Positions 9,591 to 50,870 of a stretch of 58,258 nucleotides of DNA are shown here, one piece after another. Position 1 is the first letter of the stretch, and each line of letters opens with the position of its first letter. A program made the translations under genes and the position numbers. The DNA comes from Planctomycetota bacterium (GTDB lineage: Bacteria > Planctomycetota > Planctomycetia > JALXBF01), in the NCBI GenBank assembly GCA_026991575.1, contig JALXBF010000096.1, forward strand, positions 1-58,258, read 5' to 3'. A model generated the notes under the pieces. That model searched no databases. It saw only the letters and a program-made list of their open reading frames with translations, and was not told the origin of the DNA.

Positions 9591-9610
9591 GTCAGGTTCT
9601 CCTCTGGGCG

Positions 9611-26135: not shown

Positions 26136-26163
26136 TGTCAGGAAACCGGCTGCTCAGGCGTAG
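26136..26163 (+). promoter_or_regulatory. Candidate ECF-type promoter TGTCAG-N18-GTAG
   Basis: TGTCAG at 26136-26141, 18-nt spacer, GTAG at 26160, about 40 nt before ATG 26204. Same motif precedes three other island genes. Confidence 0.55.
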
Positions 26164-26203
26164 GTCGTATGGAGTGACCAGCTAAACCGTGCCGGAGGCA
26201 AGC

Positions 26204-26974
26204 ATGACGATCACAGCAGGTCGCTGCCAGTATGGGTTGTTGGAAGCGGTGGCACCAAACCATCCGCTTTGTCGGCGGATTCAGATGGGCGGTTTGAGGG
26301 TGGCCGTGGCCCAGCATCTGTTGCCCAGGAACCGAGATGCGGTGTGGGTCACCTGCCGCATCGGTACCGAGTACGCAAGGAATCAGCTGCTTCAGGAAGT
26401 GTTTTACGCCTGGCGGCTCCCCATGTCGTGTCATCCGGACGTTGGCTACCAGGTGGTCATAAGCCGCTACCCGGACCAGCAGGTGCGGCGTACGGCAGAG
26501 CTGCTTCTGCGTGCTCAGCGGGCGGGGCTTCTTGGTGCTTATGCCGTCGAGATGCGCCCCAGCGGCTGGATAGTCCGGGCGCTGCGCGATTGCGCGAGCC
26601 GACGCTACTTCCTCGGGCAGTGGCTCGAGCTGTTTGCACTAATCGTCGCTTCCCGGCTAGTACGTGCTCGCTGCCCTGGGTTACCCGAGCCGCTCACTCG
26701 GGTCGTCGTGGCCGACGAGCTCGGCAACGCGGTGCGTGAGCTGGACGTTGTCGTGCCCCTTCCGGATGGCAAGCTCCTGATTGTGGAGGCCAAGGCGGGG
26801 TTCAACGATGAGGGGGACAGACAGCTTAGCGACGCGGCGACGCGCTGGCGGCTGAAGCGATCGCATGCGGTGTTACTGCAGCCGGGGGGGAGGACCCGCA
26901 TACACGATCAGTACATCGTTATGGGACCGCGCGCCTATGTCCTGCATCTGCGAACTGTTCTGACCACACCCTGA
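26204..26974 (+). CDS. PD-(D/E)XK nuclease, Card1/DUF1887 C-terminal-domain-like, paralog 1
   Basis: YFLGQWLELF...ELDVVV...LLIVEAKAG catalytic pattern. ATG 26204 follows GGAGG. No recognisable CARF domain. Confidence 0.65.
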   Translation: MTITAGRCQYGLLEAVAPNHPLCRRIQMGGLRVAVAQHLLPRNRDAVWVTCRIGTEYARNQLLQEVFYAWRLPMSCHPDVGYQVVISRYPDQQVRRTAELLLRAQRAGLLGAYAVEMRPSGWIVRALRDCASRRYFLGQWLELFALIVASRLVRARCPGLPEPLTRVVVADELGNAVRELDVVVPLPDGKLLIVEAKAGFNDEGDRQLSDAATRWRLKRSHAVLLQPGGRTRIHDQYIVMGPRAYVLHLRTVLTTP

Positions 26975-27113
26975 TCAATCCGTCGTTTGTTGGTCCGTTC
27001 CGAGGCGAACGAGGGGTTGGTGGCCGACGGTGGCCGCCTGGGATCGGGGTGAGCGCGTGGCGGTCTCACCGGTCCCGGGCCGACGCCTGCGGCGTGCTGA
27101 TGCAGCCACCGAT

Positions 27114-27141
27114 TGTCAGAGTTTGCGATCGGAGCGCGTTG
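27114..27141 (+). promoter_or_regulatory. Candidate ECF-type promoter TGTCAG-N18-GTTG
   Basis: TGTCAG at 27114-27119, 18-nt spacer, GTTGAT at 27138, just upstream of ATG 27154. Confidence 0.55.
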
Positions 27142-27153
27142 ATAGGGTGTCGT

Positions 27154-27969
27154 ATGGCGTGGGAAGTAAGTGTGCGACTGTCGAGGTACGCCGTGGCAGG
27201 ACAGCGAGAGTATGGGTTGATCGAGCGGGTTCCGTACGAGCACCCGCTGTGTCGGCGACTGCAGTTGGGGCAGTTGTCCGTCTCGGAGGCCTGGCGGTTG
27301 AATCCCAGCAACCGCGCAGCCGTCTCGGTAACCTGTCGGCTAAGCATCGGGTACGAACAGAACAAGCTGCTCCAGGATCTGCTGTATGCCTGGCGCTTGC
27401 TCGCACCGCATGCATCAGATCCAAACGCGGAGATCGTCATTCGCCCAGCCCGCTACCCGCGTGAGCAGGTGGCGCAGGCCTTCCAGCTGCTGGTGCGTGC
27501 CCGACAGGCCCGGCTGATGTCCAAGCAGCCGATCCGGTTCAGGCAGGAGGGTTGGCGTGTCCGACCGATCGCGCACGTCCAAACTCGGTCCTACTTCACG
27601 GGACGATGGCTGGAACTGTTTGCTCTGATCGGGGCGTGGCTTGTGCACCGCGTCCGCTGTCGTGAGCTGCCGGAGCCGTTAGGGCGGGTCGTGATCAATG
27701 GCGCGGGCGGCGAAGCTGCTTGCGAGTTCGACGTCGTGGTGCCAATGCCCAATGGGAAGTTCGTCTTTGTGGAGGCGAAGACGGGGGCGGCTCCTGGTGC
27801 AGGCGGCAAGCTGGCTGAAGCGGCATCGCGTTGGGGAGTTGGCAGGAGGTATGCCGTGTTGCTGAAGCCGAGCGGAGAGCCCCAGATCTACGACAACTAC
27901 ATTGCGATGGGACCACGCCATTACATCGGCTACCTGAAGATGCTCGTCAGCCGAACTTCTAGCCAGTAA
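27154..27969 (+). CDS. PD-(D/E)XK nuclease, Card1/DUF1887 C-terminal-domain-like, paralog 2
   Basis: YFTGRWLELF...EFDVVV...FVFVEAKTG. Collinear with paralog 1 (HPLCRR, VTCR, YAWRL, RYP, LPEPL, MGPR conserved). Confidence 0.65.
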   Translation: MAWEVSVRLSRYAVAGQREYGLIERVPYEHPLCRRLQLGQLSVSEAWRLNPSNRAAVSVTCRLSIGYEQNKLLQDLLYAWRLLAPHASDPNAEIVIRPARYPREQVAQAFQLLVRARQARLMSKQPIRFRQEGWRVRPIAHVQTRSYFTGRWLELFALIGAWLVHRVRCRELPEPLGRVVINGAGGEAACEFDVVVPMPNGKFVFVEAKTGAAPGAGGKLAEAASRWGVGRRYAVLLKPSGEPQIYDNYIAMGPRHYIGYLKMLVSRTSSQ

Positions 27970-28909
27970 ACGCAGCCCCCAACCCGCGTAGAGCGTGCGG
28001 GCGGTGCCCGGCGCGGCACTGAACCACGCCATAGCGTCCTGCCAGAGGGTGCCGGCGTAACCTGGTCGTTTGCGCCCGCCACCAACGCGGCCCACGGTGT
28101 AACAACGTCCGTGCTCAACCCAGCCAGCGAGGCCGAGGCGAGACGAAATCAGGGTCTCTCTGCACGGTTTGTGCCACGTGGCAATGTGCCTTGGGGTACG
28201 TGTCACACGCACTGCTAGCTCGCTGTCGGTTCGTTTGCCGGCCGTGCGGCTCGTAGAGCGGTCCAGCCAGCGCGCGCGGTCGATATGAGCTCTTGCCAGG
28301 CCGCCCGTGCTGTCCGGCCGACCCTTCGGGCCGGAGGCCGGTGATCTCCTCAATCGCCCATCCCGGCGGAGAGCCGGCATTAACGCGTGTGGACCTCTAT
28401 CCACGCTAGCCGCGCAAGCTTACGCACGATGCCAGCAGCGCTGCCAATGACCAAGCGACGCCACTGGATAACGCGAGGCATGTCCTCAGCTGCCTTGCGC
28501 CGCGCCGGGGGGCTTCTGAACGGTCTGCGGGCCGTGGTCCGTCCGCCTCCCATTGGCGGACTGACGGTTCGTGGGCCGATGCAGGCACGCCGGGCCGGTG
28601 CTTCGTGCGGGGACCGCGGGAACAAATCTGGGAGCTGTGCGTCTTTCCAATAAAGCACAGGGTCGACGTACGGGATCGTTCCGGACAGCGCGATGGTACG
28701 TCGCTTACTTCGCACCAACCAGTGCCCTTCTCACACGGCCCAGCCGACGGTCACGCGTGCTCGTGCCGCCGCCGGCGCCTTCCCAGCGTGGCCTTCGGCC
28801 GCCGCGGCTGACTGAGCCGACCTGCAGCCGCTACGCCTTGCTCTTCCCGGATTCCTTTCGCTGCTGGTTTTCTGAACGTTTACTTGCTACCCGTGGAGCT
28901 GTATCGGTG

Positions 28910-29638
28910 ATGTTGGGCCGTCTGGTGTGTTGGCTAAAGTCGCTTGCTGGTCGTCCGAGCGCTGAACATACAGAGTCGGTGCCGGAGCCGGTACGTTGCG
29001 CGCCGGTTGAGGTGCTTGCCCCACTGGCCGGTGACGACCCCGTTGAGCGGGCCAAGTTGCTCGTGCGGCTCGCTGCCCTGGCCGTGAAGGCGTCCACCCG
29101 GTCGGAAGAGGCTCTAGAAGAGCGGGACCGTGCCTCGCTGACGGCGCTGGTCAGCCTGGCACGCAGCGAGGCGTTGGAGGCCGGGATGGGCTTCGGTGAG
29201 TGGACCGAGGCAGCGTTCGAGGGGGAGGTGCTGCTGGACGGAGAGGATCGCCGCGCTACCGCCGAGCTGCTGGTGGCCCTCGACCTGGTGATCTCAGGCC
29301 TCAAGGACACTGAGGACGTGCCAGCGGGACGAAGTGCGGATGTGGCCGCAGGGCCGGACCTTGAGGACCACTCCCTTGGACCGCTGGCTCGGGTCGGCTG
29401 CGCGCTGGTTGGAGCAGACCGCTGGCCTGAACTAATCGCGGTTCGAAGGGCTGCGGCCCAATGGGAGCCGTGGCAAGCCCTCCGACGCGACGTGCTCTGG
29501 GAGCGGCTATTCATGACAGACGACGACCCGGATCCCTCCACCGGGGGACTCATGCCGCTAGCCGAGCGTGCCGCACGCCGGCGGGCGGCCTCCGGCGACC
29601 ACCCTCTGCCCATCGGTACGTTCGTCGCACACGCGTGA
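28910..29638 (+). CDS. Hypothetical acidic all-alpha protein
   Basis: Protein-like A/L/E/R-rich composition from ATG 28910 with GGAG upstream. The upstream ORF extension looks non-coding. No family recognised. Confidence 0.6.
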   Translation: MLGRLVCWLKSLAGRPSAEHTESVPEPVRCAPVEVLAPLAGDDPVERAKLLVRLAALAVKASTRSEEALEERDRASLTALVSLARSEALEAGMGFGEWTEAAFEGEVLLDGEDRRATAELLVALDLVISGLKDTEDVPAGRSADVAAGPDLEDHSLGPLARVGCALVGADRWPELIAVRRAAAQWEPWQALRRDVLWERLFMTDDDPDPSTGGLMPLAERAARRRAASGDHPLPIGTFVAHA

Positions 29639-30497
29639 GCGGCGGCGACCGTGCCACACGGGGCTGCGCAGACGACCAACCGCTGACCGACATGCTGCGC
29701 GCACTGAGGTGCAGCCTGCTGGAGCTGGTTCTGGCGGGTCCCCCGGTGGCCAGTTCGGGGGTAGCCCGCCGGAACGGTCCCCGGCTGCGCAGGCCGAACT
29801 GTTGAAGCCAGCGGATGCGTTTACCGTGCTTGCGGAGGACCAGGTGCAATGACCCGCTGGAAAGAAGCCGGAGCTACCGCATTGGGGGGTTCGCATCCGC
29901 TGGATTGCCTGGCCCAGCACGGATCCTGTGCAGGAGGGACTGGTCACTGCAACGCAGGTACGCCGACCCGCACCGCAGCGGAGCGTGTTGTGGCCGCCGG
30001 TGGTGCCACCCAACAGCTTTAGCGGCGGCGCCAGGATGGATGCCGGCCGCGTCGAGAGGCTGCCGGGTGTCACACAGACGTGTCCGTAGATTCGCCCCCC
30101 GCCTCGGAGCTCTGGCTGCAGCGCTAACCGCCTCTGAACCCAACGCGGCGCCATCACACCTGCCACTGGCACCCGGTCCATAGCAGCGGACCTGGTATCG
30201 TTAGCCCTATCGACCTGGTGGGCCGACTGGCGCCAGTCCCTTGTCTCGTCGTCGCATCTCTCTGTCCGGTGGCCGGACACGCTAGACGCCACCCAATCGC
30301 CGGCCTCAGGTTGTGTGCCCTGTCCACGTCGCTCTTGGTTTTTTCCTGTGGACACTCCTTCAGCACACACTGACAGGGCGCGCTGATCGCCCGTAGAGCC
30401 GCGTCCCATTGCTCTGCCCGGGTAGTTCGCCGATCCTGTTGCACCGACCTGCTGCTTCCAGGTCCGTGGCGTGAAGCGTTCCGATCGTGCAGCCTGT

Positions 30498-31127
30498 CCT
30501 CCGCTACCACTCTCGTTCGATAGGTGGGTACGGGCTCAACGTTGTGGTGTACCAATTCGACGGCCGGTCGGGGTTTCAATCCCATCGTGGTTCGATTGGT
30601 CGGTGCGAGCTTCATGAAAACTTTGGTTTTGGAGAGGATTTGTATTGGTTTCAATCCCATCGTGGTTCGATTGGTCGGTGCGAGCTTGAGAAGGTGCTCG
30701 ACGAGCTCGAGGGTGCCGGCGGTTTCAATCCCATCGTGGTTCGATTGGTCGGTGCGAGTTTTTGGAGGAGTGCTATGAAGCTCGAAAGTATATTCGTTTC
30801 AATCCCATCGTGGTTCGATTGGTCGGTGCGAGATGTCTACAATGTTTCACACAAGAGATTGTTAGTTACGTTTCAATCCCATCGTGGTTCGATTGGTCGG
30901 TGCGAGGGGGAAGCGGGGTGGCGGAGATTAAGCTCCGAACGGGCGTTTCAATCCCATCGTGGTTCGATTGGTCGGTGCGAGAACGAAAAACCTGTAGTTA
31001 TATTTGGATTGCCTAGGAGTTTCAATCCCATCGTGGTTCGATTGGTCGGTGCGAGGAGGAGAAGCCAGTAATAGTGTTTGGGGCGCCTAGGTTTCAATCC
31101 CATCGTGGTTCGATTGGTCGGTGCGAG
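30498..31127 (-). CRISPR. CRISPR array: 8 identical 37-bp repeats plus 1 degenerate trailer repeat, 8 spacers of 35-38 bp
   Basis: Plus-strand repeat GTTTCAATCCCATCGTGGTTCGATTGGTCGGTGCGAG starts at 30573, 30648, 30722, 30796, 30870, 30945, 31019 and 31091. Degenerate copy at 30498-30534 (23/37 matches). On the minus strand the repeat has a short ATCG/CGAT hairpin and ends in ATTGAAAC, the class 1 8-nt handle, so it is transcribed from the cas2 side. Confidence 0.98.
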
Positions 31128-31400
31128 GCACCTCAGCGCAACTGGCGACGTAGCAATCGGTTGTGATCGGTTTTGCCCGGAGCTCGCGAACCAGCCGCTG
31201 CGAGAGCGCCGGCTGCGCGCGGGCGCCGTCGCATCCTATTGCCAAACAACTGGTTGCGGTTGCCCGCAGGTGGGCCATTTTCGGCCGCGCCAGAGGTGCG
31301 GGCAACAGGGCGCCGGCCGGCCAGCCAGCGGCAGGACAAGGCCGGACGGCGACAACGCACACAGGATCACTTGTCCGGACAAGATGCCGCACCTGCAGCC
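31128..31400 (-). promoter_or_regulatory. CRISPR leader
   Basis: Non-coding stretch between cas2 and the first intact repeat, opposite the degenerate end. Contains CAA-N4-TTG motifs at 31154-31163 and 31247-31256. Extent approximate. Confidence 0.65.
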
Positions 31401-31607
31401 TCCACCCATCCTAGCTAGTGCCGCGGGTAGCGACAAGGAGGTCCGAGGTCTCAGAAGCGCGGTCGCTCAAGCCGTGCGACGGGGGCCGGGACAGAGCTGC
31501 CAAGAGGCGGGAGCAGCCGGGGCGGGCGTGCCGCCGCGAAGAGGAGCTGCGGATGCCCAGCAGGCATCCGTTTGGTCCGGGGCGCAGCATCGCGCGCAAC
31601 CACCCGC

Positions 31608-31997
31608 TCAGCGATCCTCCTCATCGGTGCTGGCACGTGAAGCCGAGCGACCGGGGACGAGCCGCAGGCCGTCAGCCCCGGCCGACGCTATGGCGGCGTC
31701 CGGGCAGAGCCAGCCCGGCAGACCGCGGCATCGTCCGAGAAAGGTTTCTTCCGAACGCAGCTGCCACGCTTGCACGACATCGGCTCTCAGGTCCATCACC
31801 GCGGCAGCACTGTCCAACAGCGCTTCCAGCTCACGTACCGTGCCGCGGAACAAGAACACCGACCGCTGCGTGCGCAACGCGTACCGCTCCATCACACGGG
31901 CAACCCGCTGCAACCGCCTGGGATCGGCGATGTCATAGGCAACCACGAACATTGCCATCCGCTTGTCTCCGTGCTGTTGACCGGTGGTCTCTGTCAC
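31608..31997 (-). CDS. cas2: CRISPR-associated endonuclease Cas2
   Basis: FVVAYDIADPRRLQRVARVMERYALRTQRSVF motif. GTG start overlaps the cas1 stop (alternative ATG 31958). Confidence 0.95.
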   Translation of the reverse strand: MTETTGQQHGDKRMAMFVVAYDIADPRRLQRVARVMERYALRTQRSVFLFRGTVRELEALLDSAAAVMDLRADVVQAWQLRSEETFLGRCRGLPGWLCPDAAIASAGADGLRLVPGRSASRASTDEEDR

Positions 31998-33136
31998 GAC
32001 TGAGCCGGCTGAGAATCTGGGCCCCGTGCCGACCGTGCCGGCGGGCGGCGGTCGAGGTGACGGAGAAGTTGGAAAAACCTTTCGATCTCGTTGTTAACAC
32101 GCCGACTGTGGTCGTCGCGACTCCAGGCTGCTTCCCATTGGGCTAGGACTCGAGAGAACGCGGCCGGACTTAGGATTACGCCGCCCTCGGGCCCTCGGCG
32201 AAAATCACCCGGGGCCACGATGCCGGTGTTGCATAGCCTCAAGACCCAGCGATCCACGATGCGCACCCGGAGCGGTTCGATCAGGTCACAGGCCAGTGCG
32301 GGACGGCCAGGTCGCGGCTCGTGCAAGGCGCCCAGAGCTACCTCCAGGCCCGCCGCGCGACAGCGTGCGACCAGACGCGACGTCAGCAGCGTGTACCCAA
32401 GGCTCAGCAGGGCGTTTACGGGGTCCCGCGGCGGCCGGCGATTCCGCCCGTGGAACGACCATGGCCGCTGGAGCCGCTCGCCCAAGATCCGAAACCAGAC
32501 CGCCGCCGCCGATCCCTCGATCCCCAGCAGTTCACCATGACTCGTGGCCCGGTCGGCTGCCTGACGGAACCGCCGTAACTCGCCGACCAACGCCCCGGTT
32601 ACGCCCCCGTGGCGTTGGAAGTAGCGTGCCGCCTCCAGCTGTGAAGCGATCTTGCGGACGACGACGTCCTGAGCAAGCACGAACTTCGCCTCCGGACGGC
32701 CGAGCACTCGGTACTGCATCAGCCTGATCGTGACGCTACCGTCTACCGGGGGCGCCAATAGACCACGAAGCCGAACGCCGCGGTAGGAAAGGAACGCTAC
32801 CAGAACGTCGTTCAACAACAGTTCATGCACCGCTGCGTCCGTTACCCCGACACGGCCGTAGCAGAGCACCAGCTCCAGCGGACGCAGATCGAGCGCAAGC
32901 TGCACTCCCTCTGCCGTCGCAAACGCTACCCGACCGTTAATCACCTTCAGCGTGCCCGGACCGACCAAGTGCGCGACGGGTGTTGCTACCACCTTCGGCC
33001 GACGCCTCGGACCGCTCTGCGTTTCCCGTGCTCTCATGGCCCGTACCCGACTGTTCCTGGCGTTGCCGCTTCTTCCACCGATTGCGGCGCTCCCGCTTAC
33101 GCCGCGACCCGTTGTGCCGTGCCCCTGTGCCTTCAT
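31994..33136 (-). CDS. cas1: CRISPR-associated endonuclease Cas1
   Basis: LLGIEGSAAAVWF, RNRRPPRDPVNALLSLGYTLL, GALH and ALACDLIEPLR motifs with catalytic E/H/E intact. Start may be ATG 33037. Confidence 0.95.
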   Translation of the reverse strand: MKAQGHGTTGRGVSGSAAIGGRSGNARNSRVRAMRARETQSGPRRRPKVVATPVAHLVGPGTLKVINGRVAFATAEGVQLALDLRPLELVLCYGRVGVTDAAVHELLLNDVLVAFLSYRGVRLRGLLAPPVDGSVTIRLMQYRVLGRPEAKFVLAQDVVVRKIASQLEAARYFQRHGGVTGALVGELRRFRQAADRATSHGELLGIEGSAAAVWFRILGERLQRPWSFHGRNRRPPRDPVNALLSLGYTLLTSRLVARCRAAGLEVALGALHEPRPGRPALACDLIEPLRVRIVDRWVLRLCNTGIVAPGDFRRGPEGGVILSPAAFSRVLAQWEAAWSRDDHSRRVNNEIERFFQLLRHLDRRPPARSARGPDSQPAQS

Positions 33137-34787
33137 TCCGCTTCGTGTCGGCGGCCTCCTCCTGATCCGGTCGCATCAACGCCGGCGATTCCGGTTTCCG
33201 CTGCCGCGACGCCGGTACGTAACGGATCACCGGATCCGGTACGGCTGGACCGGCCGGCATCGTGGCTTCTGGCGGGGACGGCGGCAGTAACGCGGCCACG
33301 CCGAGGTCGTCGTCTTCCTGCCGTGGCTCGGCAAGCGACCCATCCGCCGTCACCTGCTCGGGGACCATCCAGGCCGGTTTCACGACCACGTTCTCGTAGC
33401 GGTGTGGTCGCAGCGTTCCTAACACCGTAAGCTGCACGCCGTCGACCTCCCAGGTGCGGAACCCGCCCGGAAGTCGTACCAGATGGCGTTTCCGCAGCTC
33501 GGCCCTGCTGAGGCCGAGCACCGTGCGCAGCAGACGCTCCACGCGGCCGAACACGTGATCATCCACGTCCAGGAAGACCTCATGAGCGTTCAGCGTCGTA
33601 CGGTACACACCAGCCCACTGCTTTAGCGTCGTGTTAAGCGACTTGATCCATTGCCCCAGATCAAACGCACTGGCCTCGATCCGTTCGCTCGGAGGCATGG
33701 TCATCTCGTCAATCTGTTCGATCAGTTCCAGGACCCGCTGCTCGGGAACCTCGCACGCGTATCGCGTGCCCTCAAACCACGGTTTCCGCCGCGGCACGAA
33801 CCGCAGCCCGAGCCACTCGAATCCGTTATCCGCCCGGCTGTACCGCCACCACCGCGCCGTCGTTCTGAGCCGTAGCTTCCGCGCAGCCCGGTGCACGGTG
33901 TGCAATGCCCGCCACATTGACCGTCGCGTGCCTGCGATGAGCAGGAGATCGTCAGCGTACCGGAAGAAACTGACGGTGCCTTCCGAGGCGGCCAGCTGGC
34001 CCAATGCTTCGTCCATCGGATGCAGGTACAGATTGCACAGCAAAGGCGACAGCGGGCTTCCCTGCAGAATGCCGACGTGACGAGGGGAGAGCCACCCGAT
34101 TCGCTTCGCCCCGGCGTATAGGACGGTCTTCACTAGTGCCAGGAAGCGACCATCTGAGACGCGATCGCCGAGCATTCCAAGCAGGAGGTCAACGTCGATC
34201 GAGCCAAAGCAGTCCCGCACGTCAACCTTGGCGACCCAGGCAACGTTAGCAGGCGAGAGGTTACGATCGGCCAGCGCACGGCACACCATCGCAGCGGCTC
34301 GGGCTACCCCCTGGCCCGGGCGGTACCCGAAGCTACGCCGATCGAAGGTCGGCTCAAGCACCGGTTCCAGCACCTGCTTCAGCGCCGCATGCACGATTCG
34401 ATCACGCACGTTCAGCAACGTAAGCGTGCGGATGCCACCGGTGCCATCGTCTTTCGGCACGTCGAACTGACGGTACGGGCCGGGGCGGTATTCACCCCGC
34501 ACGAGCTGCTCTGCTAACTCCTCCAGCACGATCCCGATCCGTGACGCTAGCTTCGCGCACGTCTGCCCGTCAGGGCCGGGAGTGTCGGCGCCGTCGGAGC
34601 GTGCGACGCGGTCCCAGGCAGCTAGCAGGTTCCTGCGGTCCGTCAACCGGGCCATCATGTACTTGGCAGGACGACGGCCGTAGTTGGTCTTCAAGAAGAT
34701 TTCGCGCTGCAGGTCAGTAAGGTCCTCTTTCACGTTGCTGCGAGTAACCGGTCTAACCCTTTCCTCAAACAGTGAGACCGTAACCAT
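32937..34787 (-). CDS. CRISPR-associated reverse transcriptase (group II intron-type RT with thumb/X domain)
   Basis: NLLAAWDRV..TPGPDG, PK..G..R, RDRIVHAAL, SFGYRPG, VDVRDCFGSID, GILQGSPLSPLLCNLYL, RYADD and FEWLG motifs. AGGAG RBS. Directly upstream of cas1. Confidence 0.93.
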   Translation of the reverse strand: MVTVSLFEERVRPVTRSNVKEDLTDLQREIFLKTNYGRRPAKYMMARLTDRRNLLAAWDRVARSDGADTPGPDGQTCAKLASRIGIVLEELAEQLVRGEYRPGPYRQFDVPKDDGTGGIRTLTLLNVRDRIVHAALKQVLEPVLEPTFDRRSFGYRPGQGVARAAAMVCRALADRNLSPANVAWVAKVDVRDCFGSIDVDLLLGMLGDRVSDGRFLALVKTVLYAGAKRIGWLSPRHVGILQGSPLSPLLCNLYLHPMDEALGQLAASEGTVSFFRYADDLLLIAGTRRSMWRALHTVHRAARKLRLRTTARWWRYSRADNGFEWLGLRFVPRRKPWFEGTRYACEVPEQRVLELIEQIDEMTMPPSERIEASAFDLGQWIKSLNTTLKQWAGVYRTTLNAHEVFLDVDDHVFGRVERLLRTVLGLSRAELRKRHLVRLPGGFRTWEVDGVQLTVLGTLRPHRYENVVVKPAWMVPEQVTADGSLAEPRQEDDDLGVAALLPPSPPEATMPAGPAVPDPVIRYVPASRQRKPESPALMRPDQEEAADTKRNEGTGARHNGSRRKRERRNRWKKRQRQEQSGTGHESTGNAERSEASAEGGSNTRRALGRSGHAEGD

Positions 34788-34870
34788 CGGCGCTGGCTCC
34801 TTCTGGTGACGATCCGACCGTTTCTCTCGGCTGGCTGCGGTGCCTGCTCTTGAGGTGGCAGTCCTATTTG

Positions 34871-34900
34871 ATTTACTGTCCTGGGGGTGGAAACCTGACA
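34871..34900 (-). promoter_or_regulatory. Candidate ECF-type promoter TGTCAG-N18-GTAAAT for RT-cas1-cas2
   Basis: Minus-strand TGTCAG at 34900-34895, 18-nt spacer, GTAAAT from 34876, about 85 nt before the RT ATG. Confidence 0.55.
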
Positions 34901-35076
34901 GCTTGACGAGAAAATCCGGCAGCCCAGCGAAAGGCGAGCCCGTCGTCGTCCTGACCTGCTGAGGGCAGGATCTGGCCGGCTGGTCTTATGGAACATGGAC
35001 GGATGCGTTCGGACAGGGGCGTCGTCCGGAAGGCTACGGCCTGCGGAGCGGGTTGCCCGGACGTTATTGCTGTTCG

Positions 35077-36318
35077 CTAGCGGACGGGGTCCCAGGGCTT
35101 CCACTGGCCGGTCTTGTCGGGAGCTTCCAGGATGGGACGGCGGCCACGCGCCAGCGCGGCGGAGAGGAGCTCAAGCGGGACGTACGCGACCCCTTGCTCG
35201 CCGACATACGCTTCCACCTCGGCCAGCCGGACCGGCATACCGACCAGCTCCGGTGCGGGATCCCCCGGGGTGACCAGCTCCTCGGCAACGGGGCTGGAAT
35301 CCAGGGCTATGGCAAGCGCGACCCTGCGCAGCTCCAGCGGCAGTCCCCGCCCGAGCCGCGCCAGGTCGTCGCGCCATTGGACAATCGCCACATACTGGCG
35401 GTCCGGGCTGGCCCACTTGACTCCTTCCATGACCTGCGGCGTACCGGCGGGCGCCGCGGCCAGCGCAACTCCCTCAGGGGGCCTGCTGCGAGCCTGCTCT
35501 GCCGCAGCCTGGTACGCGGCCACCAGCTCCTGCAACCGCTGTACGACGACCCTTTGCTCCCACAGGGGCGAGCCAACCAGCAGGTGCGCCGGCGGCGGGG
35601 GGGGCGGTCCGGAAAGGAAACGTTCGCAGCGCACGACCTCTTCCAGCAGCGGTACGAACTTGCCCAGTGTACCGACCAGTTCGTCCCGGTTGGGGTCGGA
35701 CGCTTCAACAACCGCGCGGACATAGCGTTCCAGCGGCAGGAATAGGTCGGACGATTCAGTTAGTGCGTGCCGCGCCAGCTCCAGGGGCTGCTCCACGGCC
35801 GCAAGCTCTCGACCTCCCCCACCTGGGGCCGACCGAGCTACAGCCAAGACCAGCTCGGCATCGTCCAGGTCATCAAGCAGTGTCATTGCCCAGTGCGCGT
35901 CCGCTTCGCCTTGCTCGACCGCCTGCTCGTGCCACTCTTGCCATTCCCGCAGCCAGCCGGTCGGCCGCATCACGTCCAGCGCCATGGTGGCCAGTTCGCC
36001 CAGGCGCTCATGCATGGTTTCTTCGCACCGACGCAAGCCGGCCTCCTTGGCCGCGTCGCTGAACCACTCAAAACCATGCTTCGGTACAGACGTGCCGAAG
36101 GCCGCTGCTATGTACTCGTCACGCGTGCGCCTGAGCCGGGCCCAGGCTGCGAGCAGCTCGTAGGCCACTTGCGGATCCGAGGTGTCAGCAGCGGGCAGCA
36201 ATTCGAAGAACCAGTCGGCCCATTCTGCAACCAGCGGCAGCGGATCGACCGGTTCAGAGAGTTCGGCCAACTGCCGAAGCACACGCTGCAGCCTTTCGGC
36301 GATCGTTTTCGTGTCCAT
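35077..36318 (-). CDS. Hypothetical 413-aa protein, candidate anti-sigma / Csx30-like
   Basis: Clearly coding. Acidic helical N-terminal region (LLDDLDDAEL), poly-Pro linker, ALAAA motif and short beta-rich C-terminal region. Lies between the ECF sigma and the RT. Function inferred from context only. Confidence 0.6.
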   Translation of the reverse strand: MDTKTIAERLQRVLRQLAELSEPVDPLPLVAEWADWFFELLPAADTSDPQVAYELLAAWARLRRTRDEYIAAAFGTSVPKHGFEWFSDAAKEAGLRRCEETMHERLGELATMALDVMRPTGWLREWQEWHEQAVEQGEADAHWAMTLLDDLDDAELVLAVARSAPGGGGRELAAVEQPLELARHALTESSDLFLPLERYVRAVVEASDPNRDELVGTLGKFVPLLEEVVRCERFLSGPPPPPPAHLLVGSPLWEQRVVVQRLQELVAAYQAAAEQARSRPPEGVALAAAPAGTPQVMEGVKWASPDRQYVAIVQWRDDLARLGRGLPLELRRVALAIALDSSPVAEELVTPGDPAPELVGMPVRLAEVEAYVGEQGVAYVPLELLSAALARGRRPILEAPDKTGQWKPWDPVR

Positions 36319-36582
36319 CGCTGTCGTCTCTGCTGAGTCTGCCTTCCCTGGTTACCACCTGGCGGCCGGCGGCATGGCCATTCCACAACCATCAGGCCGC
36401 AGCCTGCCGAACGATCGAGCGACGGGCTACAGGCGATGCCGTGCTCGATCGCGCCGTGTCGGTCCCGTGAAGCCTGGCGCAGCGGGTGCGACCTTGGCGG
36501 ATACGGTCGCCCTGCGGGCCGGACGCGCCGGGCGCCGCAGAGCCCTCAGAGGCAACGGTCCCGCCCGGTGTCCTGCTACGAA

Positions 36583-36612
36583 AAGGACACAGCGTCCGGA
36601 TTTTTTCTGACG
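36583..36612 (-). promoter_or_regulatory. Candidate ECF-type promoter CGTCAG-N18-GTCC
   Basis: Minus strand reads CGTCAG AAAAAATCCGGACGCTGT GTCCTT, about 265 nt upstream of ATG 36318. Weaker match than the other three. Confidence 0.4.
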
Positions 36613-37177: not shown

Positions 37178-38170
37178 CTAAGGTGGTGCCGGGAGTTCAT
37201 CGCGAAAGACCACATGGTACCAGAACGTCCAAGCCATTGCCGACGCAGCGTCCCGGAGCTCATCCGGAGGGAAGTCTTCGTTCACAGTCTCGGCCAGCGC
37301 CTGGCGCATCCTGCGTATCCATTGATACCAGGTGGCCGGCGACGCCTTTGCTTCGGGGACCAGTTGCGTGACCACCGCGGTTACCGTGCGCTGGCCCACC
37401 CGTCCCTGCCGACAGCAGTACCCTTGCCAAGCCCTCCAGACCGTGGCAAGTTGGGGCCAGCCGTCCTTGGGCCGAAGGGCCTCGACGGTGCTGTCCCACG
37501 GTACGGCGTCTGCCACCGTTTGGCCGATGTCGGCATGAAGGACGGTTTCCCGCTGGCAACCGCTGAGCAGCATCTGGTAAAGTCGGGTACGGAAGAACAG
37601 CCAGTAGACGGCGACGTAATCGATGGCACGTCCCCGCCGTTCGCTAAGTTGAGTGGCTGCCCAGCGGTGGCAGTGCGTCAGTTGGCGCACCAGTTGCCGC
37701 CATCGGGCAGACGCGGCCGCCGGCGGCTCGTGTTCGGCGTCGGGTATGACGGAACAGCGGGCGAGGGCAACCTCGGGTGGCACGTTACCGTTGCCCAGTT
37801 CGGACATTCGCCTGGTGCGTTTGCCGCCCCTGCTACGCTGTCGCAGCTGGGTGCGCATCCGGTTTTGGGCCACGGTTACGATCCAGCCTTTGGCATCGTC
37901 GGCGGAGCGCCTGACGTTGGCGGGCAGCTTGCCCAGCCAGATCTGTAGCAGAACGTGGTTGGCTGCGTCAGACACGTATTCCGGGTCGTTTTCCGGTGGC
38001 TGACAGCTGTTCTCGATGTGGCGGTGGACGAGTTGATACAGCTCGAGTAAGGCTGCACCGTCACCCTGCTCGGATCGGGCGACCAACAAGCGGAAGTCGT
38101 CGCCTGACGGCGGTATCCCCTGCGCAACCACGTCCAGACGGCCCCGAACAAGCTCCGGTGGAGGCACCAC
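37178..38170 (-). CDS. Atypical ECF (sigma-70 group 4) sigma factor
   Basis: LVARSEQGDGAALLELY, DAANHVLLQIW and WIVTVAQNRMRTQLRQR (region 2), plus a distal SPATWYQWIRRMRQAL helix like region 4.2. Start uncertain (GTG 38170 or 38131). Confidence 0.75.
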   Translation of the reverse strand: MVPPPELVRGRLDVVAQGIPPSGDDFRLLVARSEQGDGAALLELYQLVHRHIENSCQPPENDPEYVSDAANHVLLQIWLGKLPANVRRSADDAKGWIVTVAQNRMRTQLRQRSRGGKRTRRMSELGNGNVPPEVALARCSVIPDAEHEPPAAASARWRQLVRQLTHCHRWAATQLSERRGRAIDYVAVYWLFFRTRLYQMLLSGCQRETVLHADIGQTVADAVPWDSTVEALRPKDGWPQLATVWRAWQGYCCRQGRVGQRTVTAVVTQLVPEAKASPATWYQWIRRMRQALAETVNEDFPPDELRDAASAMAWTFWYHVVFRDELPAPP

Positions 38171-40204: not shown

Positions 40205-40397
40205 TTGGTAGGTGTGGCCCGAAGCGGGTTCCTGCCGGCCGCGTTCCGGCGGCCGGTGGGCTAAGAGGGAAGACGGTGAGAATCCGTCGCGGGGCCGCCG
40301 CTGTGTTCGGCGAGGTCCGGCCCACGATGCCACTGGGAGCCACGCTCCTGGGAAGGCGGGTTCGGACCGCTTGAGCCGTAAGCCAGAAGACCTGCCC
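40205..40397 (+). ncRNA. Cobalamin (B12) riboswitch
   Basis: Conserved blocks AAGAGGGAA-GACGGTGAGAATCCGTC, CCGCCGCTGTG, GCCACTGGG, CTGGGAAGGC and B12 box AGCCAGAAGACCTGCC, in canonical order. Confidence 0.93.
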
Positions 40398-40572
40398 GCT
40401 TCGGTCGGTTGTCTCCAGGGGTGTCTCGCGCCGGGCGCCCGGAGGCAAGGAGCATGCGCTGCTGCAGGCCGGTCGGATACGCTCCGGCCACGGCCTCTCT
40501 GCGCCCAGGTCCTTACCTTCCGGAGGCCCGGTGCGGCTGCCGTGCCCGCGCCGGCACAGGAGGTAAGCGACC

Positions 40573-42246: not shown

Positions 42247-45200
42247 ATGATCAGCCGCAGAGGCGGGCTTCTGCCCCGCATCGCCGCGTTCGTGCTGACC
42301 GCGGTTGCTGTGGCCGGGTTGATCTGGGCACAGTCGGCCGGCACGAGCCGAACCCGTAACGCGTACTTGCCTACCAGTGAGCAGGCGTCCGAACAGCTAC
42401 AAGTGGCACAACGGCTGATCGAACAGGGCCGTTGGGGCGACGCCGTGGCCGCGCTGGAGGACGTCATCGACCGGTACCCGGACCGGGTTGTTGCGCTGCA
42501 GGACGGGTTGTACATCAGCGTGCGGGACTATGCGCATCTGCTGGTTGCGCGCTCCGGCCCGGACGGGCTGGCCGCCTACCGGCTCCGCGTCGATGCTCGC
42601 GCCGAGGCGATGTACCGGCGCGCGATCGATCGGAACGATGTCGCACTGTTGCGCGCGCTGGTCGACCGGTACTTCTGCAGTAGCCGCGGCGATGATGCGC
42701 TGGACTTGCTGGCCGAGCACGCATTTGAGGCTGGTCGTTTTGACGAGGCGGTTGCGCTGTGGCGCCGGCTGCTGCCGGAAGCAGGCGACGGCGACACCGC
42801 ACACGTCGTGCTCTGTTACCCGGACACCGACCTGAACCGCGCCGAACTGGCAGCCAAGCAGGTGATTGCGCTGGCCTTTGGTGGTCATCTCGAGGAAGCG
42901 TACGCGCGATACCGGCAGTTCCGGGAGCGCTATCCGGAAGCCGTGGGCCGGCTGGCCGGTCAGGAGGACCTCTGGGTGCAGCACCTGGGCAAGTTGCTGA
43001 AGCAGTTGGGTCGCGCTACGAAGCCGAGCAGCAGCGATTGGCCCACCTTCGCGCGTACCCCAGCCCGTACCGGCGTTGCGCCCGAGGCGGTTGACATTGG
43101 TAGCGTGCAGTGGAGCGTTACCTTGCCGCCGGTGGTTCAGGCACCTAGGGGATTCATCAGTCGCCAGATGGCGACTCCGCCGGCGTCGGGCCGCGCTGCG
43201 TACCACCCGATTGTTGCGAAGGGTTACGTGATCGTGTGCAATCAGAGCCAGGTGCTAGCGTACCGGTTGCAGGAGGGGCCGGGCGAGGCGGAGCGGCCCG
43301 CGTGGACTTATGAGCTGCGGACTGCGGGTGCCGCCGGCTTCGGTCGCATGCCTTACGGGGTGACGGCGCCGCCACAGTTCACGCTGACCGCCTCCGGGGA
43401 CCGCCTCTACGTTCGTCTGGGGACACCGATGGCCGCGCCGTTGCGGAAGGCGGGGCGGACGTTGGAGAGCTACGTCGTCTGCCTGAGCCTGTCGGCCGAT
43501 GGCAAGCTTCTCTGGCAGCGCAGGATCGATGAGCCGGACACGGTCTTCGAGGGGGCACCGGTTGTGGCAGGCGATCGAGTCTTCATTGCCGCGCGCACCG
43601 GCGGCTCTATGCTCCGCTCAACCGTGTACTGCTTCGACGCCCGCACGGGCCGCAAGCTCTGGTCACGCCTCGTCTGCGAATCCCCCCAGTCGGGCCGCTA
43701 CTACGATCGCCTGGACACGGCACAGAGCCTGATCACGGTGGGCCAGGGACTGGCGTTCTACGCGACCAATCTTGGTGCCGTTGCGGCTCTCGATACCGAA
43801 ACCGGCGAGATCCGCTGGATCTGGACGTACCCGCGCAAGCAGGGGGGCTATTACGCGCGGCAAGCACGGCGGCCCACGGTCCGGGCAGCAATCTACGACA
43901 GGGGCCGCCTGTTCGTCGCGCCGGCCGACGCGGACCGCGTCAGCTGCCTGGACGCCAGCAGCGGCCGGGTGCTGTGGGAGGTGACGGCCGGGACGCTAGA
44001 TGCCACGGGCAGTTTCCAGATGCTCGGCATCCACGACGACTGCCTCATTATCAGCGGCGAGCAGGTCATGGCGTTGGAAGCGACTACGGGTCGCAAACTA
44101 TGGCAGTTCCCGCCGGCAGGCGGTCGGCTCGCGGCACGCGGCCGCGGTGTACTGGCCGGTGACCTGCTCTACGTACCAGACGAGACGCAGATTTACGTGC
44201 TTGACGTGAAGACCGGTCGGCCCGACCGGCCGGCGGTTGAGTTGGTGAACCAGCACCATCAACAGCCCGGCAACTTGATCGTTGCCGATGGCTACCTGAT
44301 CGTGGCCGGCGAGAAGCTGGCCGTGCTGTGCGAGTACGGCCTGCTGATCAGACGTTACCGCGAACAGCTTGCCCGCCGGCCCACCTCCGCAACGCTGCAC
44401 CTGAAGCTGGCCCGCGCGCTGGAGGCCACCGGGCAGGCCGAAGCCGCAGCCAAAGCGTACCGCGCCGCGCTGGAGCACGCTCGCCCCGGCGAGCGGGTCG
44501 ACGGCGTCGAACTGGCAGCCGTCTGCCGCGAGCGGCTCTATCACCTGCTGCTGCGGCAGGCGAAGCAGCTGGTTGAGCAGGACGGGCAACAGCAAACTGC
44601 TCGAGCCGTCGAGCTGTTGAAGGAGGCGGTTGCGGTCGCACCGACTGCGGGAGCCGAATTGGAAGGGCGGCTAACGCTGGCTGCTGTCTGGCAGAAGGCG
44701 GGCAAGCCGCAGGAGGCGCTGGCGGCGTACCAGGAGATTCTCGCCCAGCAGCGGCTTCGGTCGCTGCCGTACGCGGTCTCCACAAACCGCTCCGTTCGTG
44801 CCGACGTGGTCGTGTACGATCGGATCGAGCAACTGCTGCGTGAGCATGGTCGGGAGCTGTACGCGGTTTACGAAGAGCAGGTCAGACGCGGCCACCAGCA
44901 GGCGCTGGAAGAGCGTAACCCGCTGCTTCTGCGCAAGCTGTTGGCTCGTTACCCGAACAGCACGCTGCGCTACCGGCTGTGGCTCGACCTTGGCCGGCTA
45001 CTTGCGGAACAGCAGCGTTGGAGTGAGGCGGCGGATGCGTACCGCATGGCGAGCAGCATCGGGCGCAAGCCGCAGGAGCGGGCGGCGGCGCTGATCGGAC
45101 TGGCACAAGCGTTGGAAGCGCAGCGGCTGTGGCCGGCCGCGGCGCGCGTGCTCATTGAGGCGCGACAGCTTGCACCGGAGGCCAAGCTCCCTGAGGGGGG

Positions 45201-46605
45201 CGTAACCTTAGCCGCTTACGTGGATCGAAAGCTACAAGAGGATGCGTTCCGATGGACGTTGCGCCGCGAGCAAGGCTTGATGCTGCCACTGGGCGTGAAG
45301 TGGCAGCAGGACTGGGGCCAGGGCGCGAAGGTGCTGCTGGCCGAAGGGACACCTCCGGTGGGCATGAAGCCGGTCTTCTTCGTCCAGCGAACCCGCTCGC
45401 TGGCCTGTGTCGATGCGCTGACCGCCAGTGAAATGTGGCGGCTGCCAACGACCACGGCCGTACGCTGGGCCGGTTTCGTGGCCGACAAGCTCGTCGTCAC
45501 CGATGATCGCCGTGTCGTGGCCGTGACCGTTGCCGACGGTACCGTGGCGTGGAGCCATGAGTTTGCGGCGGAACGGTCCGTGGCAGGACCGTTGCCGAGG
45601 GGGTATGAGCTGGATGAAGCCCCAGGCAACCGCCGCTTACAGGCTCGGCTAAGTCCACGACCGGGCCGCGCGCAGTGGGCTGCGGGCGAGCCACCTAGTT
45701 TGCGGGTCTGCGGTTTTGCCGATGATCGGCTCTATGTGTTGAGCCCCGGGGGTGAGCTGGTGGCGCTGTCGGCCGCGAAGGGCACTCAGCTTTGGGCATT
45801 TCGGCCCACGACCGGCCGGCTGGGCGAACACGTGGCCGTCAGCCCGCGGCTCGTGGTGGTCCAGAACGTGGCTGCCAATCGGATCCTCGTACTTGACTCC
45901 GACGGCCGCGTCCGCTGGGAGCTGGACGGCGCCGGTGGCCAGTGGGCACGCGATCCGGTTTGGGTCGATAGTAGACGAGTCTGTGCCGTGACTGCTTCGG
46001 GCACCGCCCAGCTGATCGACGTCGATACCGGACAGCTCGTCTGGGAGTACTCGGCTACAGGGCTGCTGGGCCGCACGCCACGGGTGATTGTCGGCCCAGG
46101 CCGAACGCTGTGTTTGCTTGTGGGGGCGGAGTTGCGGCGGCTTGATCCGGAGACGGGCGATGTGCTCTGGAGCGTGACACTGGCGCATGCCCCGCTGGCA
46201 CGCGACGATCACGTCTGGCTGATCGATCGCTATCGCTTTTACTGCGTGACACGCACCGGCGCACTGAGTGCCCGATCCCTGGACGATGGCCGGCTGTTGT
46301 GGCAATACTTGTTGACGGGGGCATACGGCGGCAGCACTTCGGCCTATGGCCGCACCGCGTGGCGGCTTGCCCGCTCGGGCCAATACCTTGTGGCCTACCC
46401 CGCCCGCGCGCAGCGGCCCCAGACGCTGGTGCCCTTGGTGGTTGTCGTGGCCGACAGCGGAAAGCTCGTGCAGCGTCTGGCGTTGACGGCAACGGGGGCC
46501 CAACTGGAGCTTGCCCTGGCCGGCTCCGTGGCGCTGCTTCGCTCGCCCACCGCCGTACTGCTGGTGGCCCGAGACGACGCATGGTTTCAGCTTGCAGAGG
46601 AGTAG
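42247..46605 (+). CDS. Large secreted PQQ-like beta-propeller / TPR protein
   Basis: Signal peptide. Repeated D..TG...W propeller motifs in two blocks separated by TPR-like helices. ATG 42247. Confidence 0.85.
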
Positions 46606-46609
46606 CCGT

Positions 46610-47707
46610 ATGAGTTCGGTAGAGCGGAATGAAGCGGCTGATACGCAGGCGGCGAGCGGCAAGGATCTGGAGGCGATTCAGCGGTTGGCCAGGGCGTACG
46701 AGCAGATCCGCTCGGAGCTGAGCCGGGTGATTGTCGGCCAGCACGAGGTCATCGAGCAGCTCATGATCGCGATGATCTCACGTGGCCACGGCTTGCTGGT
46801 CGGCGTGCCCGGCCTGGCCAAGACGCTTATGATCCACACTCTGGCCGACACGTTGAACCTGTCGTTCAACCGAATCCAGTTCACTCCGGACCTGATGCCC
46901 GCCGACATCACCGGCACGGAGATCGTCCAGGAGGACAAGGCGACAGGCCAGCGCGTGTTCCGCTTTCTGCGTGGTCCCATCTTCGCAAACGTCATCCTGG
47001 CGGACGAGATCAACCGCACGCCCCCCAAGACCCAGGCCGCGCTGTTGGAAGCGATGCAGGAGCACTTTGTGACCGTCGGCGGGGAGCGGCATCGATTGCC
47101 CGAACCGTTCTTCGTGCTGGCCACCCAGAACCCGATTGAACAAGAGGGCACCTATCCGCTGCCCGAAGCTCAGCTGGACCGGTTCATGTTCATGATCCAT
47201 GTCGGCTACCCGAGTGAGGAGGAGGAATTCGAGATTGTTCGGTTGACGACGGGCGATCGGGAGGTGAAGCTGACGAAGGTGCTGAATGCGTCCGACATCC
47301 TTGATCTTCAGCATATCGTGCGCCGCGTGCCGGTGGCCGACCATGTGATCCGCTACGCCTTGCGCTTAGTGCGGGCCACGCGGCCAGAACAGCCCGACGC
47401 GCCCGGGTTCATCAAGGAATGGGTTACCTGGGGGGCTGGTCCACGCGGCAGCCAGTACCTTGTGCTGGCCGCAAAGGCGCGCGCGGCATTGTACGGCCGC
47501 TGGCATGCGACAATCGATGACATCCGAGCACTGGCCGGTCCGGTGCTGCGCCACCGCATCATTACCAACTTCAACGCCGAGGCCGAAGGTGTGCGTCCGG
47601 ACGACATCATCCGGCGGCTGATCGAGACGATCTCGGTCGAGTCGGAAAGCAAAGTCGTGGCCGGTCGCATGGGACACGTGGTTGACACCAAAGAAAAAGC
47701 ATCGTAG
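46610..47707 (+). CDS. moxR: MoxR-family AAA+ ATPase
   Basis: GVPGLAKT Walker [48 protein letters not shown] 46610 follows GAGGAG. Confidence 0.95.
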
Positions 47708-47748
47708 TAGCTGCAACGCAAGCCCACCGACGGGTACCGTAGCAAGTC

Positions 47749-48669: not shown

Positions 48670-48675
48670 GGCGCA

Positions 48676-50832: not shown

Positions 50833-50870
50833 CTCGTTTCGGACGCGGCGAGTGTGCCGGCGAGGAAGTG

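Follow-up and report, generated by a model that had tools for sequence, protein, structure and literature searches.

A genome-wide bipartite motif, probably a promoter, and its place in a proposed type III CRISPR signalling cascade of Planctomycetia

We describe a bipartite sequence motif, TGTCA-N18-CGT(A/T), which stands upstream of CRISPR and other defence genes of a Planctomycetota bacterium, together with the sigma factors, putative anti-sigma proteins and proteases that may control it. The window, that is the whole stretch of DNA analysed, comprises 58,258 nucleotides (nt) and is contig JALXBF010000096.1 (C96) of assembly GCA_026991575.1, a genome of 4.96 Mb which is 97.8% complete and distributed over 191 contigs. 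It carries an island containing two paralogous nuclease-like genes (A and B), a gene of unknown function, a CRISPR array, cas2, cas1, a reverse transcriptase (RT) gene, the gene for a 413-amino acid (aa) protein, here called T, and that for a 330-aa sigma-like protein (Table 1). It is nearly certain that the motif is a real regulatory signal. We propose that it represents the -35/-10 promoter of a family of extracytoplasmic function (ECF)-like sigma factors and forms the output of a type III CRISPR signalling cascade in the class Planctomycetia, and give this whole chain a probability of about 0.7. The best reading is a cascade similar to CalpL-CalpT-CalpS, in which a CARF domain replaces SAVED and the anti-sigma has a different fold.

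The motif and its predicted regulon

Genes were called with our own dicodon-based script (3548 genes, 83% coding), and their starts and the intergenic limits are approximate. Genome-wide, GT follows TGTCAG-N18 at 28 of 146 upstream intergenic occurrences of the hexamer, as against 4–14 at 13 other spacings. Within genes there is no enrichment of GT at spacing 18 (59/964 vs 39–71), five control hexamers gave no peak at that spacing, and the CGTCAG form is barely enriched upstream (19/234 vs 7–16). With a 600-nt scanning window the count was 35/178 against 11.6 expected (p 5e-9), the top result of all position-by-dinucleotide tests; TA at 19 and CG at 17 ranked next, and the -10 box was therefore extended to CGT(A/T). 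Taken by itself the 58-kb window is marginal: a loose pattern gave nine matches where 4.5 were expected, nine or more being reached in 1 of 100 shuffles, and the five extra matches are all CGTCAG and all lie within called genes. A sigma-70 promoter scan of the island found none. A TATAGT hexamer occurs 21 nt before the start of the sigma gene and is only a lead.

A search of 400 Planctomycetia genomes found T in 26, and 40 of the 43 T loci listed outside this genome were fetched. The upstream DNA of 80 loci holds 34 sites of the form TGTCA-N18-CGT(A/T), against 0–3 at other spacings. Counted per genome over the fetched loci, and with base T or C allowed first, the motif is present in 20 of the 26 T-positive genomes, against 0–4 at other spacings. 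The sixth base is variable (G, T or C). The relatives' sites precede cas10, cmr1-like RAMPs, cmr3, cas1, cas3, cas6, the sigma gene itself and the T gene. Genome-wide upstream enrichment and recurrence in related loci were among the checks put forward in a preliminary description of the window, and both came out in favour of the motif.

That description had listed four sites as a shared motif. All four are where it placed them, intergenic and on the coding strand, and it was correct that other TGTCAG hexamers of the window lack GT at this spacing, the only three TGTCAG matches being those it gave. The matrix used to score them was derived from 52 sites of other genomes, so that its scores on the loci of those genomes are circular and are not counted as evidence. 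Of the 9.9 million positions of the genome, 20, 16, 104 and 761 score at least as well as sites 1, 2, 3 and 4, respectively, which upholds sites 1–3 and leaves site 4 in doubt. A bipartite ECF-type promoter motif before both nucleases and RT-cas1-cas2 is supported by these results. The proposal that the inhibitor gene is co-activated through site 4 is not supported as stated, given the weakness of that site, whose -10 box reads TGTC in place of CGT(A/T). Because two closely related loci (G405 L074, G760 L067) have a good site before T where site 4 stands, site 4 may be a decayed version of it. The A-for-C change of site 3 recurs at the sites preceding cas4-cas1-cas2 (C164) and cas8b (C19). The nucleases are paralogous and their upstream DNA is alignable (a score reached by 0 of 300 shuffles), so that sites 1 and 2, which descend from a duplication, do not count as independent; the spacers have diverged while both boxes and their spacing are kept. 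The -10 position of site 4 lies inside a short hairpin followed by a run of T (36585–36597, minus strand); the frequency of terminator-like matches in the region is not above that in shuffled sequences.

The regulon had been taken to be four genes of the island. Judged from the sequence, the motif is not confined to the island and the predicted regulon is genome-wide, with about 20 sites. These precede both type III-D operons (C32, C27), cas4-cas1-cas2 (C164), the I-B cas8b operon (C19), csx1 (C45), a Mokosh-A-like helicase cluster, VIT-vWA, ARPP-1 and two paralogues of the T gene. At 12.5 bits a site is found before 10 of 28 annotated defence genes and 19 of 2409 other genes; the list of 28 was partly chosen after the sites had been seen, so that its p-value overstates the case. 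The cas10 and cas1 sets are complete, and a site precedes two of the three cas10 operons and two of the three cas1 operons. The genome has three RAMP clusters, all multi-gene and Cas10-containing (III-D, III-D and III-B), with the GGDD sequence intact in 3/3 Cas10 proteins.

Sites (several on C27, others on C19, C30, C162, C116, C75, C91 and C143) also lie before VIT-vWA, ARPP-1 and MoxR/DUF2201 genes, secreted-looking proteins of no assigned function and a DUF1559-like gene. At C27:56596/56522 and C27:29968/29902 the sites are in tandem. The cluster of Mokosh-A-like helicase, PIN and ClpB-like genes follows the sigma-T-protease triad described below in several genomes (G000 C32:14893-23474 (L016, L017), L067, L068, L076) and has its own motif site in three.

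The protease, the putative anti-sigma and the sigma factors

The proposed trigger, which was absent from the earlier reading, is a Lon-CARF protease encoded elsewhere in the genome in three copies, two on C115 and a third alone on C183. Since no protease is encoded in the window, it must act in trans from C183 or C115. The two C115 proteases match the CARF_m2 CARF-Lon model (PADLOC PDLC01981) with E values of 2e-67 and 2e-81. The Lon catalytic Ser (S142) and Lys (K185) do not vary among 30 sequences and are shared by all three copies of this genome, and the C-terminal domain is closest to the CARF domain of Csm6, with additional matches to those of Can1/Cam1. The genes on C115 are arranged as Lon-sigma-T and sigma-T-Lon triads, and C12 and C34 join into a sigma-T pair. 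A 1127-codon frame with matches to both Lon-CARF and the Cas10 palm (L190:7331-10711, G135) may be a protease-Cas10 fusion or two overlapping genes.

Among the fetched loci T has a Lon-CARF gene as same-locus partner in 33 of 40 and a detected sigma gene in at least 25 of 40, the prevailing order being sigma-T-Lon. Full-length Lon-CARF is present in 25 of the 26 T-positive genomes versus 1 of 53 others, and Cas10 (E<1e-6) in 25 of 26 versus 9 of 54. Outside the class T-Lon-CARF pairs persist; among the five genomes of other classes, two have the pair beside type III genes.

The structure model of T has a pLDDT (predicted local distance difference test) of 92, and residues 1–278 are all helical. 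Word-based protein searches gave almost nothing for T, the sigma or nuclease B; their relatives were found by HMMER and genome searches. A full HMMER search yielded 53 representatives of the T family, six members of which are in this genome. An Ala-Ala pair is present in the linker of 37 of 43 family members that are at least 330 aa long and of 30 of 33 proteins from the T loci; the two sets overlap, and six more locus proteins were left out as they lacked the anchor residue. Only W122 and D152 are invariant, and the conserved feature of the family is a degron-like linker rather than catalytic residues. T has no PDB, Pfam or PADLOC profile match, and its C-terminal beta domain has none to Pfam or PDB; the Atlas search gave no usable lead. 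Neither profile nor fold searches linked T to Csx30 or CalpT, the fold searches returning only generic helical bundles; remote kinship of T to either is compatible with these results. In a FastTree tree of T the sigma-B-linked sequences form a clade (support 1.0) apart from the rest, that is, the family splits with the two sigma subfamilies introduced below. Because T has sigma neighbours, splits with the sigma subfamilies and carries a CalpT-like Ala-Ala linker, the 413-aa gene is, on these sequence grounds, likely to encode the inhibitor of the sigma, as the preliminary description had supposed. One relative (G426) has a fusion of a T-family N-terminal domain with a DEAD helicase carrying an MrfA zinc domain (L163:5956-9339), the gene for which immediately follows that of a subfamily-B sigma.

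The window sigma is atypical. Its sigma-2 domain gave a profile match to SigE (E 8e-7) and a structural match to region 2 of E. coli sigma-E (Z 9.3, root mean square deviation 3.9, 94 residues aligned). C-terminal helices, a possible sigma-4 region, are present, and the whole protein is about 130 aa longer than usual ECF factors. The genome encodes four such sigmas, two of subfamily A, to which this one belongs, and two of subfamily B. In FastTree trees, from which sequences below length cut-offs were left out, the window sigma and T group with those of G405, G666 and G760, and the proteases of the same three genomes group with the C183 and first C115 copies; the supports for the matching clades are 0.91 (sigma), 1.0 (T) and 0.999 (proteases). 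The control genomes were an imperfect set, in that 3 of 12 chosen as T-negative have a subfamily-B sigma, two of these with the motif; the remaining nine hold a single site, before an unrelated gene.

The proposed cascade, its parallels and its rivals

Cas10 of type III complexes makes cyclic oligoadenylate. The scheme takes the motif, its targets, the triad, the domain content and the conserved linker as observed, and borrows the steps between them (activation by cyclic oligoadenylate, linker cutting, removal by ClpXP, sigma release and transcription) from CalpL-CalpT-CalpS and general ECF biology. A type III complex would recognise foreign RNA and its Cas10 would produce cyclic oligoadenylate, which would bind the Lon-CARF protease and render it active. 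The protease would cut the anti-sigma of the T family within the Ala-rich linker, as occurs in CalpT, and the exposed LAA end would direct the anti-sigma to degradation by ClpXP. The freed sigma would then transcribe from about 20 sites, the targets being both III-D operons, RT-cas1-cas2, cas4-cas1-cas2, the I-B operon, csx1, the two nucleases, some anti-sigma genes and other conflict-type genes. The outcome would be positive feedback on CRISPR interference, adaptation and ancillary nucleases, with resynthesis of the anti-sigma as a brake. The share of the window would be one sigma/anti-sigma pair and three target sites, the protease coming from C183 or C115.

A wider view, to which we give even odds, is that cyclic oligoadenylate serves here mainly as a genome-wide alarm rather than for killing, and that paralogous Lon-CARF/anti-sigma/sigma modules converge on one promoter class, forming an immune stimulon triggered by CRISPR, its anti-sigma family not described before. 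The functions induced would be interference of types III and I, the acquisition of spacers by both the DNA and the RT-based route and ancillary nucleases, together with unrelated conflict systems (MoxR-vWA, VIT-vWA, helicase-PIN-ClpB). Were this so, type III signalling would amplify its own effector and adaptation genes and switch on other defence systems, and the detection of a virus would induce more of the bacterial immune system.

Comparison with known systems is based on the portions of the cited papers that were accessible. CalpL cuts CalpT within LAAAA, the resulting LAA terminus acts as a degron without which CalpS is not freed, and the N-terminal domain of CalpT is MazF-like (10.1101/2024.05.08.593097). 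The planctomycete modules resemble this system in having a Lon-type Ser-Lys protease fused to a cyclic oligoadenylate sensor beside an anti-sigma and an ECF-like sigma, in their link to type III systems, and, at the sequence level, in the Ala-rich linker with a potential LAA degron between the two domains of the anti-sigma. The three genes are adjacent in relatives and in the two C115 loci, the window having sigma and T only. The sensor here is CARF (Csm6/Can1/Cam1, CARF_m2), unlike the SAVED of CalpL. The N-terminal domain of T is all-helical in the model, unlike the MazF-like domain of CalpT. A beta domain forms the C-terminal part of T, the position of the DUF2080-type domain in CalpT. The sigma is longer than CalpS, there are several modules per genome, and a genome-wide regulon is predicted; none was found in the accessible parts of the CalpS papers.

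In the type III-E system CASP-sigma/Csx30/Csx29, CASP is activated by direct Cas7-11/Csx29 contact and CASP-sigma has three in-locus sites, TCACATT-N13-CGAC (PMC10028731). Common to both systems are sites upstream of cas1 and, here by proposal, an ECF sigma released by a protease and positive autoregulation of defence genes. Our motif has a different -10 box from those sites and a spacing one base off theirs, and also precedes effector operons across many loci and genomes; the effectors are Cas10-based, multi-gene III-B and III-D complexes, not a single Cas7-11 effector with a Csx29 TPR-CHAT protein. The SAVED-CHAT / PCaspase systems reportedly use cyclic oligoadenylate-triggered proteolysis in a type III locus, and a linked sigma factor is said to occur there; they have caspase-like proteases and SAVED, unlike the Lon-CARF found here, and this genome has two CHAT proteins, both encoded away from cas operons. 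CARF-Lon itself is known as a predicted fusion for which host killing has been speculated; the accessible part of that review (PMC9704534) does not name a substrate, sigma or regulon, and the proteases of this genome match the same model, CARF_m2. PMC11229360, PMC12751052 and 10.1101/2021.12.06.471393, in the parts available, describe CalpL only; CalpL was formerly called Lon-CARF (10.1101/2021.12.06.471393), an overlap of names and not the protein described here. The string TGTCA was not found in the main text of the ECF re-classification (PMC7826278), the group promoters of which are in its supplement. No paper on the Lon-CARF/T/sigma triad or its regulon was found in a literature search outside of which lay the 2020 CARF classification and most subscription papers. 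The system would work like CalpL-CalpT-CalpS and CASP-sigma and is a member of neither, in view of its CARF sensor, the other fold of its anti-sigma and a motif unlike the published CASP-sigma sites. For sigmas that CRISPR proteases release, few natural targets are known (three in-locus sites for CASP-sigma and, in the papers as available, none found for CalpS); this locus family, conserved in about 20 genomes, offers candidates for the substrate, the cut site, the sigma, the promoter consensus and the targets.

Several observations weigh against the proposed cascade. In this genome no site precedes the III-B operon, the I-G cas1 operon, two of the three csx1 genes, card1 or csx3, nor either of the operon-leading Lon-CARF genes, and some top-scoring sites precede genes without defence annotation. 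The fixed spacing of an ECF-type bipartite promoter is seen computationally, and relatives have an autoregulatory site; here, unlike in relatives, 0 of 3 unit-leading sigma genes have a site upstream, the window sigma gene has none, and the local T gene is preceded by a weak site only (8.9 bits). One of the six T paralogues (C34) lacks the AA linker. The T-positive genomes are related, so that counts across them overstate independence, and 6 of the 26 have no site in the fetched loci. Outside the class the motif is not enriched (2 vs 0–2 in 127 kb of five genomes). Finally, G407 and G411 have the motif and a subfamily-B sigma, and T or Lon-CARF was not found in them; a different release mechanism may exist there. 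In these two genomes (L161, L162) the sigma gene stands beside CARF-type genes and the motif before cas10 operons.

The question of which sigma reads the motif bears on the nearest alternative. The local sigma had been named as the reader, a claim not supported as stated, since the genome has four related sigmas. Here the two best T sites come immediately after sigma B genes (C115:20877, 17.6 bits; C34:25021, exact boxes), for which reason the local sigma is a candidate reader not singled out among the four; the two T genes linked to sigma A are preceded by no more than CGTCAGAAAA and a poor -10 (8.9 and 8.3 bits). Sites occur in five of eight sigma-B-only genomes, and all five sigma-A-only genomes have them upstream of that sigma and of cas genes (two of the five, G669 and G682, were assigned by position and alignment and then included in the profile, so that their profile scores are by construction). 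Because both kinds of genome carry sites, both subfamilies are probably readers. That the motif is an ECF promoter read here by the sigmas of subfamily B (C115, C12) or by some stress ECF factor unrelated to them, the window sigma A having drifted to another specificity or become inactive, appears unlikely in view also of the homology of the two subfamilies over their length (HHalign 97.8%) and of the good sites before T in the loci nearest to the window pair (G405 L074, G760 L067).

We regard as less probable again an arrangement in which the sigma reads the motif and is controlled otherwise than by a regulated cut, Lon-CARF being a broad or toxin-releasing killer and T a toxin or plain substrate. 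It would agree with the proposal, in the accessible part of a review, that CARF-Lon cleaves essential proteins or acts promiscuously (PMC9704534), with the motif and sigma in G407 and G411 where neither T nor Lon-CARF is detectable, and with T-Lon adjacency being commoner than detected sigma adjacency; against it are the splitting of the T clades with the sigma subfamilies, the mostly sigma-T-Lon gene order, and the linker as the conserved feature of the T family. Lastly, the motif could be the operator of a transcription factor other than a sigma, or sites 1–3 could be due to chance, as the marginal enrichment within the window alone would allow; a non-palindromic, strand-specific, rigidly spaced and upstream-only motif, which recurs in 20 of 26 genomes and is often upstream of the sigma gene itself, makes this very improbable.

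Other features of the window

Table 1. Coordinates of the island genes, motif sites and related features in the window
Feature	Position	Strand	Remarks
Motif site 1, TGTCAG-N17-CGTA	26136..26162	+	68 nt before nuclease A ATG; 16.5 bits; strong
Nuclease A	26204..26974	+	about 256 aa; C-terminal PD-(D/E)xK-type domain resembling Card1/Can2-family nuclease domains
Motif site 2, TGTCAG-N17-CGTT	27114..27140	+	79 nt before nuclease B; 16.8 bits; strong
Nuclease B	27193..27969	+	258 aa; paralogue of nuclease A, 46% identity
Gene of unknown function	28910..29638	+	start 28910 or 28979; paralogue on C180
CRISPR array	30573..31127	-	8 identical 37-nt repeats, 7 spacers
cas2	31608..31958	-	adaptation module
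cas1	31994..32992	-	adaptation module
Group II intron-like reverse transcriptase, YADD	32937..34787	-	separate open reading frame overlapping cas1 start
Motif site 3, TGTCAG-N17-AGTA	34874..34900	-	113 nt before RT-cas1-cas2; 13.1 bits; moderate
413-aa putative anti-sigma (T)	35077..36318	-	helical domain 1-278, flexible linker 279-299, beta domain 300-413
LAAA codons (residues 286-289), linker	35452..35463	-	predicted Lon cut site exposing LAA C-terminal degron
Site 4, CGTCAG-N17-TGTC	36586..36612	-	294 nt before 413-aa gene; 8.9 bits; weak or decayed
Atypical ECF-like sigma factor, subfamily A	37178..38170	-	330 aa; sigma-2 fold about 20-120; long C-terminal part

Gene content of the window and the source names of related proteins (Pirellulaceae, Gemmataceae) indicate a planctomycete host. 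Nuclease A has weak CARF_PDDEXK/Csx1 matches confined to residues 129–208, and a CARF domain was not detected in it by profile search; an in-frame GTG at 26189 is an alternative start. The Atlas neighbours of nuclease B bear the Card1 endonuclease Pfam (scores 0.93–0.94). Compared with Card1/Can2 CARF nucleases, both are about 100 aa shorter and match weakly, in the nuclease half only. Two further paralogues lie on contigs C117 and C74. No motif site was found by matrix scan upstream of the gene of unknown function.

The group II-like RT with its YADD sequence adjoins cas1, cas2 and the array, as expected of RT-associated CRISPR adaptation. Its low-complexity tail (32937–33300, minus strand) overlaps the cas1 start in a different frame; in G210 (L189) a single open frame is common to RT and Cas1. 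The repeat, read on the minus strand, terminates in ATTGAAAC. The leader is on the cas2 side and is conserved across four arrays of the same repeat (window 30573–31127; G000 C47, C182, C187 = L175-L177); a matrix scan of the window array leader gave no motif site.

The four arrays hold 48 spacers, none of which matches the host genome. Most are far below the genome in GC content, and on one strand G exceeds C in 36 versus 7. Several encode the same short peptide from diverged DNA (one triple and about four pairs), a pattern that points to a small target which evolves fast, for instance an RNA virus, with its spacers taken up in the mRNA-targeting sense. Searches for the spacer targets gave nothing credible, the phage matches having E values of 0.6–7. 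Of two degenerate spacer patterns, one had a match in a RecA-like gene, which is probably due to chance, and the other had none.

Clusters of PQQ/TPR, MoxR AAA, DUF58 and vWA genes typical of planctomycetes, without motif sites, occupy 42247–53270 (plus strand) and 8097–12139 (minus strand). The edge of the island is marked by a cobalamin riboswitch (40209–40413, plus strand) located 5' of a DUF1559 gene and a DUF6580 membrane protein.

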